Source: Escherichia phage vB_EcoS-716R1
Strand: one strand, 5' to 3'
Sequence record: ON470621.1
DNA: 17,893 nt
Position numbers and translations under genes: made by a program. Positions 7,822 to 8,420 of this stretch are shown here, one piece after another (position 1 is the stretch's first letter; the number at the start of each line of letters is the position of its first letter). The notes below the pieces were generated by a model. The model ran no database searches. It worked only from the letters and a program-made list of their open reading frames with translations, and was not told where the DNA came from.

Positions 7822-8420
7822 TTATGCATTAAGAAGGGTCAAAAGGCGCTCACGCGCCATTCGTTCATTAACAGCTTTCTTCAGCGCACCACTCGCCCGC
7901 GCTTCCTGCCAGGCTTTCATTGAGCGGACACCGGAGTCTGCGTCCTGATAGGCCGGATATGTCACCGGGCTGACGTCATACAGACGAGAAATGCGCGTGA
8001 TTTCCCGGATAACAATCCCCTCGTCGTCTTCATACCAGCTCTCTCCGTCACGGGCGACACGAAACGCGAACGAGGACTGGTTAATGTCACCACGCAACAT
8101 TGGAGACAGCACCAGGTCACAAATAGTCGGAGTATCCGGTGCAACAATGTCATAACGTAAACCGCGTTCATCCACCGACAATGACAATGTGCCGGCAGAA
8201 CTTCGTCCGAGAATGAAATTAGGATCATGATTAAACAAGCCACGTACATCATCATTCAGTACATCATCAAAAGCCCCCGGCTTGATGATTTCACGAAATC
8301 CCCACAGAGGTTCTGAACGACTGTTAAATACCGAGCCATACCCCAGAATGTGGGTCGGGCATTATCATATTGTTCCGCCCGCACCTCCCCGCTGTAACAG
8401 CGCGTTTCACGGTCATTCAT
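7822..8420 (-). pseudogene. Prohead protease (HK97 gp4/S78 family) interrupted by a frameshift
   Basis: From the ATG at 8420 the reading frame gives MNDRETRCYSGEVRAEQYDNARP and then runs into stops. The family-typical continuation HILGYGSVFNSRSEPLWGFREIIKPGAFDD...LFNHD...SSFAF... is in another frame, joining the 7822..8238 ORF. One missing base near 8350-8356 (a C/G run) restores a single protease-length ORF. Confidence 0.75.

Follow-up and report, generated by a model that had tools for sequence, protein, structure and literature searches.

The stretch of DNA analyzed in this study (the window, 17,893 nucleotides of record ON470621.1) carries a phage head module in which an HK97-family prohead protease gene was located on the minus strand, from an ATG at 8420 to a stop codon at 7824-7822. 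The gene lies between those for the portal and the major capsid proteins, with the capsid gene beginning 14 nt past the protease stop, and the resulting order of portal, protease, and capsid is the standard one. The features of the locus are listed in Table 1. Additionally, an HNH endonuclease gene (12174-12527, minus strand) was observed just upstream of a P27-type small terminase gene and a large terminase gene, an arrangement that is usual in HK97-like cos packaging modules.

Table 1. Coordinates of the split protease gene, its landmarks, and the adjoining head genes in the window.
Feature	Position	Strand	Basis or remark
Prohead (head maturation) serine protease pseudogene, HK97 / Peptidase_S78	7822..8420	-	599 nt, versus 600 nt in intact relatives
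5' fragment ORF, 54 codons: 21 native residues (MNDRETRCYSGEVRAEQYDNA) and 33 out-of-frame residues, TGA stop	8256..8420	-	Frames
Open stretch in the -1 frame: native residues 22-199, whole catalytic body (178 residues)	7822..8361	-	Frames and Pfam
One-base deletion, leaving C3 in the coding strand (plus strand GGG); C4 in intact relatives	8357..8359	-	Alignment and BLAST
His65 codon, motif LFNHD	8227..8229	-	Aligns with HK97 gp4 His65
Ser117 codon, motif NQSSFAF	8071..8073	-	Aligns with HK97 gp4 Ser114
Major capsid protein, 405 aa, intact	6590..7807	-	Pfam Phage_capsid, BLASTP against HK97 gp5
Portal protein, 408 aa, intact	8413..9639	-	Shares 8 nt of its 3' end with the protease start

No continuous frame from the start codon to the catalytic body was found in the window's copy of the protease gene. 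Frame 1, read from 8420, encodes MNDRETRCYSGEVRAEQYDNA followed by 33 out-of-frame residues up to a stop at 8258-8256, while a shift by 2 gives a frame that stays open over 8361-7825 and encodes (C)PTHILGYGSVFNS...LFNHD...NQSSFAF...LLNA, such that the two frames overlap across 8361-8256. An earlier reading made from the sequence only had placed the N-terminus and the catalytic body in different frames, and this was borne out both by the frame translations and by an alignment with three intact homologues (from E. coli MRSN346595, phage Evi, and orf4 of phage SfV), in which exactly one base was missing from the window. Specifically, the intact AAT GCC CCG ACC CAC has become AAT GCC CGA CCC ACA at codon 22, and a BLAST alignment against the ST617 strain MRSN346595 placed the gap at 8359. 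The sequence-only reading was correct in attributing the split to a single base missing from a C/G run, here a reduction of C4 to C3, but it had positioned the run at 8350-8356 instead of 8357-8359. It had also ended the N-terminal part in 'NARP', whereas the native segment ends in ...QYDNA and continues with PTHILGYG, the residues 'RP' being already out of frame. The comparison that it had proposed with orthologous protease genes of related prophages revealed single ORFs with one extra C at the site, and the intact orthologue (600 nt, 199 aa) agrees with the predicted length of about 200 aa for a restored ORF. The frameshift is already recorded in public annotation, as PGAP labels the locus in carriers as 'HK97 family phage prohead protease, frameshifted'.

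The family assignment was examined through Pfam searches. The repaired protein matched Peptidase_S78 (Pfam accession PF04586, with a curated cut-off of 21 bits) at 139.4 bits over profile positions 5-159 of 165, and the -1-frame stretch of the window matched it at 136.3 bits over positions 16-159 of 165. Scores of 136 bits for the downstream frame and 139 bits for the repaired protein indicate that the split is not a chance pattern of ORFs. The 54-codon 5' ORF had no match in the Pfam search, and of the ORFs with a conventional start the longest (TTG at 8238, 138 aa) included Peptidase_S78 positions 55-159 only. The columns of His65 and Ser117 were invariant in an alignment with HK97 gp4, SfV orf4, and the Evi protease, and both residues are encoded behind the shift. 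Their counterparts in gp4, His65 and Ser114, are the catalytic residues of that enzyme. A search of the repaired protein against PDB sequences returned nothing at E<=0.01. By sequence, motifs, and position the gene is a member of the Peptidase_S78 / HK97 family, but it is a pseudogene.

The neighboring capsid gene provided further insights into the likely role of the protease. The Phage_capsid domain was found at residues 126-403 of the capsid protein (Pfam), preceded by an N-terminal extension of about 125 residues, which is presumed to be the scaffold (delta) domain that the protease would remove. Consistent with this, the BLASTP match to HK97 gp5 begins at residue 123, corresponding to gp5 residue 110, and the similarity therefore starts just past the gp5 cleavage site K103/S104 (PMC10275583). 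No separate scaffold gene was present between the protease and capsid genes among the ORFs of the window. As the capsid protein contains an HK97-style scaffold domain at its N-terminus and a dedicated scaffold gene is missing, head maturation should be blocked once the protease is lost. The capsid protein itself is represented by one protein accession that is common to the frameshifted and intact genomes.

A search of complete RefSeq E. coli genomes revealed a wide occurrence of the shifted allele. The 901-nt region around the gene was 100% identical in many of these chromosomes, and a 91-nt probe across the site had an exact match in 95 complete genomes. A further 577 genomes matched the probe at less than 99% identity, and all of the 51 sampled among them spanned 92 nt, the unshifted length. 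Roughly 120 genomes differ by nothing but the indel. Among the matches listed, 14 of the 100%-identical genomes belong to ST167 (PMC6392093): M217, Sanji, WCHEC005237, ECONIH6, CRE1493, CREC-532, CREC-629, AR_0149, AR_0150, AR_0151, AR_0162, SCEC020007, 51008369SK1, and AR435. The link of the 95 carriers to ST167 is based on these 14 strains as named in that paper, where MRSN346595 is listed as ST617. The window was 100% identical to the ST167 strain M217 over 17,867 nt. Against MRSN346595, in which the protease gene is intact, the differences across 17.9 kb amounted to two SNPs, this indel, and a copy of ISApl1 inserted in iraM. None of the words 'frameshift', 'protease', 'pseudogene', and 'potB' occurs in the comparative paper on Sanji and ST167, which therefore treats neither this gene nor the site of insertion.

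The split gene was also found in two of the eight close records of the phage collection, ON470607 and ON470612. These are prophage regions that PHASTER predicted in Illumina HiSeq data assembled with SPAdes, and their sources were carbapenemase-producing clinical isolates rather than isolated phages (bioRxiv 10.1101/2022.06.29.498070). Both had been deposited as phage genomes (ON470607.1 and ON470612.1), in which two 'head maturation protease' CDSs stand for the split protease, and ON470607 includes a run of N. The last 26 bases of the window (17868-17893) diverge from M217 and match the end of ON470607.1, and the window stops at the very position where that record stops. A short-read contig or a predicted prophage region is therefore suggested as its source, with a different 5' part in the Q gene. 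Downstream of the Q antiterminator gene, a phage-borne tRNA with the anticodon CAT was observed (17126-17201, minus strand); ARAGORN identified it as tRNA-Met, and PGAP annotates an identical gene as tRNA-Ile, implying a lysidine-modified CAU anticodon.

A sequencing error would neither be reproduced across platforms and laboratories nor follow clonal descent, and the deletion is hence real. Of the two outcomes that the sequence-only reading had put forward, a real inactivating frameshift is the one upheld by the data, as the allele shared by the complete genomes and the two Illumina-derived records tracks ST167.

The prophage is about 46 kb in length and occupied the interval between potB and potC in all three genomes compared, namely the frameshift carriers M217 (Myanmar) and CM IVRI KOL-1 (India, mastitis milk) and the intact MRSN346595 (USA). 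The integrase, excisionase, Cro, Q, holin, lysozyme, Rz, terminase, portal, capsid, connector, and tail genes had no lesion in the annotation, and carriers and non-carriers share their protein accessions. The claim that every other structural gene is intact was found to hold inside the window, but not outside it, where the side tail fibre gene is broken by IS629 in carriers and the intact strain alike. This IS629/IS3 insertion splits the gene in all three genomes (positions 3249-6732 of the M217 chromosome region L006), and a small frameshifted early gene is likewise common to the three. Shared by carriers and the intact strain, both lesions are older than the protease deletion. In the two ST167 genomes a group II intron (ltrA) has in turn inserted into the IS of the tail fibre gene, while MRSN346595 has the IS without the intron, together with a second IS3 copy. 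A truncated CI repressor was suspected from the 112-aa 'LexA family protein' of PGAP, and this was rejected when an open CI ORF of 212 aa with a helix-turn-helix-like N-terminus was found (L006 40656-41294, outside the window). The annotated CI start is probably too far downstream, with PGAP covering just the last 112 aa.

Two accessory ('moron') genes of the window are oriented opposite to the late operon. One of them encodes an iss/bor serum-survival lipoprotein (13050-13343, plus strand) and the other an iraM-like anti-adaptor (15757-16092, plus strand), the latter being the gene that is interrupted by ISApl1 in the ST617 strain MRSN346595.

The explanation considered very likely is a genuine loss-of-function deletion that had a single origin in the ancestor of ST167, was inherited vertically, and left the prophage with no active protease and a block in capsid maturation. 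Under this explanation, the HK97-family gene for the prohead serine protease lost one C from a C4 run at its codon 22, in a lambdoid prophage with an HK97-type head module, resident between potB and potC. The deletion would have arisen once in the E. coli ST167 ancestor and been passed on with the chromosome. Translation from the authentic start is predicted to halt after 54 codons, and the catalytic body, with His65 and Ser117, has no start codon of its own, so that no active protease would be made. Upon induction, proheads would be expected to stall without cleavage, in a state like Prohead I, and this prophage would form no infectious particles, while lysis would still occur. Judging from the HK97 model, the position of the catalytic residues behind the shift, and the scaffold domain fused to the capsid protein, the prophage should fail to mature capsids. 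Spontaneous -1 frameshifting at a low level may nevertheless take place, as may re-initiation at the TTG at 8238, and both count against a complete lack of protease. Since the genes for integration, immunity, and lysis and accessory genes such as iss/bor and iraM stay open, the element would persist as a resident, non-transmissible prophage undergoing ordinary decay.

Several implications follow for strains that carry this element. In ST167 E. coli, the prophage at potB/potC very probably cannot produce infectious particles. The loss of the single base is also a handy marker, by which the examined ST167 strains can be told from the single ST617 strain compared directly. Additionally, PHASTER classified ON470607 and ON470612 as 'intact', although an essential head gene is broken in both; such calls are no evidence of viability. 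The case is one of ordinary prophage decay that raises no new biological question, and its practical value is limited.

Among the alternatives, the one that survives best accepts the inactivating mutation as real and differs in having it fixed by selection. In this form of domestication, a prophage that makes no virions would benefit its ST167 host while iss/bor, iraM, immunity, and lysis functions are kept. Fixation of the allele across a globally successful clone is compatible with such selection, as are the open CI, integrase, and excisionase ORFs and the observation that all other genes of the window are open and match the intact relative exactly. However, a single event followed by clonal expansion is fully explained by drift or hitch-hiking, and no independent, recurrent inactivation of the protease gene is on record here. 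The gain to the host would also be small, as the lysis genes are intact and induction still kills the cell, and the two SNPs relative to the ST617 counterpart leave little time for further decay either way. Fixation by selection is thus considered unlikely, although the present sequences would look alike whether the loss was positively selected or hitch-hiked along with a clonal expansion.

Two bolder proposals were rated as very unlikely when taken together: that the deletion was a selected 'disarming' step marking the origin of the ST167 high-risk clone, or that the prophage still spreads by means of the approximately 80%-identical protease of a co-resident SfV-like prophage. A second head module, approximately 77-79% identical, was found in two of the 40 carriers listed (about 5%), and its protease might complement in trans, only in those carriers that have one. 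The C-terminal segment is nearly identical between the repaired and SfV proteases in the alignment, and, judging by the analogous HK97 gp4, it is presumably the capsid-targeting segment.

A bypass of the shift by programmed -1 ribosomal frameshifting or transcriptional slippage, which would yield a full-length protease, is highly improbable. The downstream frame is at -1, the direction of many phage recoding sites, the frames overlap as described above, and the same window includes a real recoding-type site in its tail assembly chaperone genes. This pair (3609-4297, minus strand) is composed of a G-like ORF at 3911-4297 and a T-like ORF at 3609-3899, and the first ORF ends in GTT AAA AAA AAG TAG, with the slippery run A AAA AAG at 3915-3922. 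The A AAA AAG run is the classic -1 frameshift arrangement that yields a G-T fusion protein. The protease junction, in contrast, is quite unlike this site. A useful shift there is confined to GCC CGA CCC ACA, between the -1-frame stop ending at 8362 and HILGYG, and this stretch includes no X XXY YYZ heptamer, while its three-base C run is too short for polymerase slippage. Neither a slippery heptamer nor a long homopolymer was found at the frame junction. Furthermore, the two-frame arrangement is not conserved among homologues, which have single ORFs: the gene is unshifted in Evi, SfV, and the related E. coli genomes sampled, indicating that the split form is derived and recent rather than a conserved recoding arrangement.

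An alternative start for a near-full-length enzyme was similarly rejected. From the stop ending at 8362 up to the TTG at 8238, none of the codons ATG, GTG, and TTG occurs in the -1 frame. The nearest weak non-canonical codon is an ATT at 8349-8347, and it follows 34 nt downstream of GGAGG at 8388-8384, which is the sole strong Shine-Dalgarno-like motif. A product initiated at the TTG would miss positions 1-54 of the Pfam profile.

The remaining reading attributes the missing base to a sequencing or assembly error in a homopolymer, with an intact gene and a prophage that may be functional, and it can practically be dismissed: indels in a short C run are a known error mode of some long-read platforms, but the run comprises just 3-4 bases, the identical allele was recovered by many laboratories and countries in the 95 complete genomes and again from Illumina HiSeq reads in the two SPAdes records, and it is confined to one clone, whose close relatives, including the intact ST617 strain, have four Cs with the same sequencing methods.

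A comparison with known systems places the gene beside HK97 gp4 (MEROPS S78). The two are alike in lying between the portal and major capsid genes, in conserving the His and Ser aligned with His65 and Ser114 of gp4, and in having as partner a capsid protein with an N-terminal scaffold-like extension. However, the repaired protein shares only 31% identity with gp4 and has fewer residues (199 aa versus 225 aa), and a further difference is that the window's gene is a pseudogene whose catalytic body is out of frame with its start codon. Much closer relatives were found among coliphages and E. coli prophages. The protein WP_000999828.1 occurs in the ST617 strain MRSN346595 and in many other E. coli prophages, and the DNA of the MRSN346595 gene is identical save for the single C. 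The protease of phage Evi is 99% and SfV orf4 is 81% identical to the repaired protein. In MRSN346595, Evi, and SfV the flanking portal and capsid genes are as in the window and the protease genes are single ORFs of 600-603 nt, whereas the window copy is one base short at codon 22. Evi is a coliphage isolated from infant faecal samples (PMC10910852), and the 99% identity of its protease to the repaired protein indicates that the intact form of this head module is viable.

The prophage as a whole resembles the cryptic or defective lambdoid prophages of E. coli in its vertical inheritance at a fixed chromosomal site and in the combination of an IS629 copy in the tail fibre gene, a group II intron, small pseudogenes, and a frameshift in an essential head gene. 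In contrast to the classic K-12 remnants, this element is far earlier in decay, with a length of about 46 kb and nearly all of its genes open.
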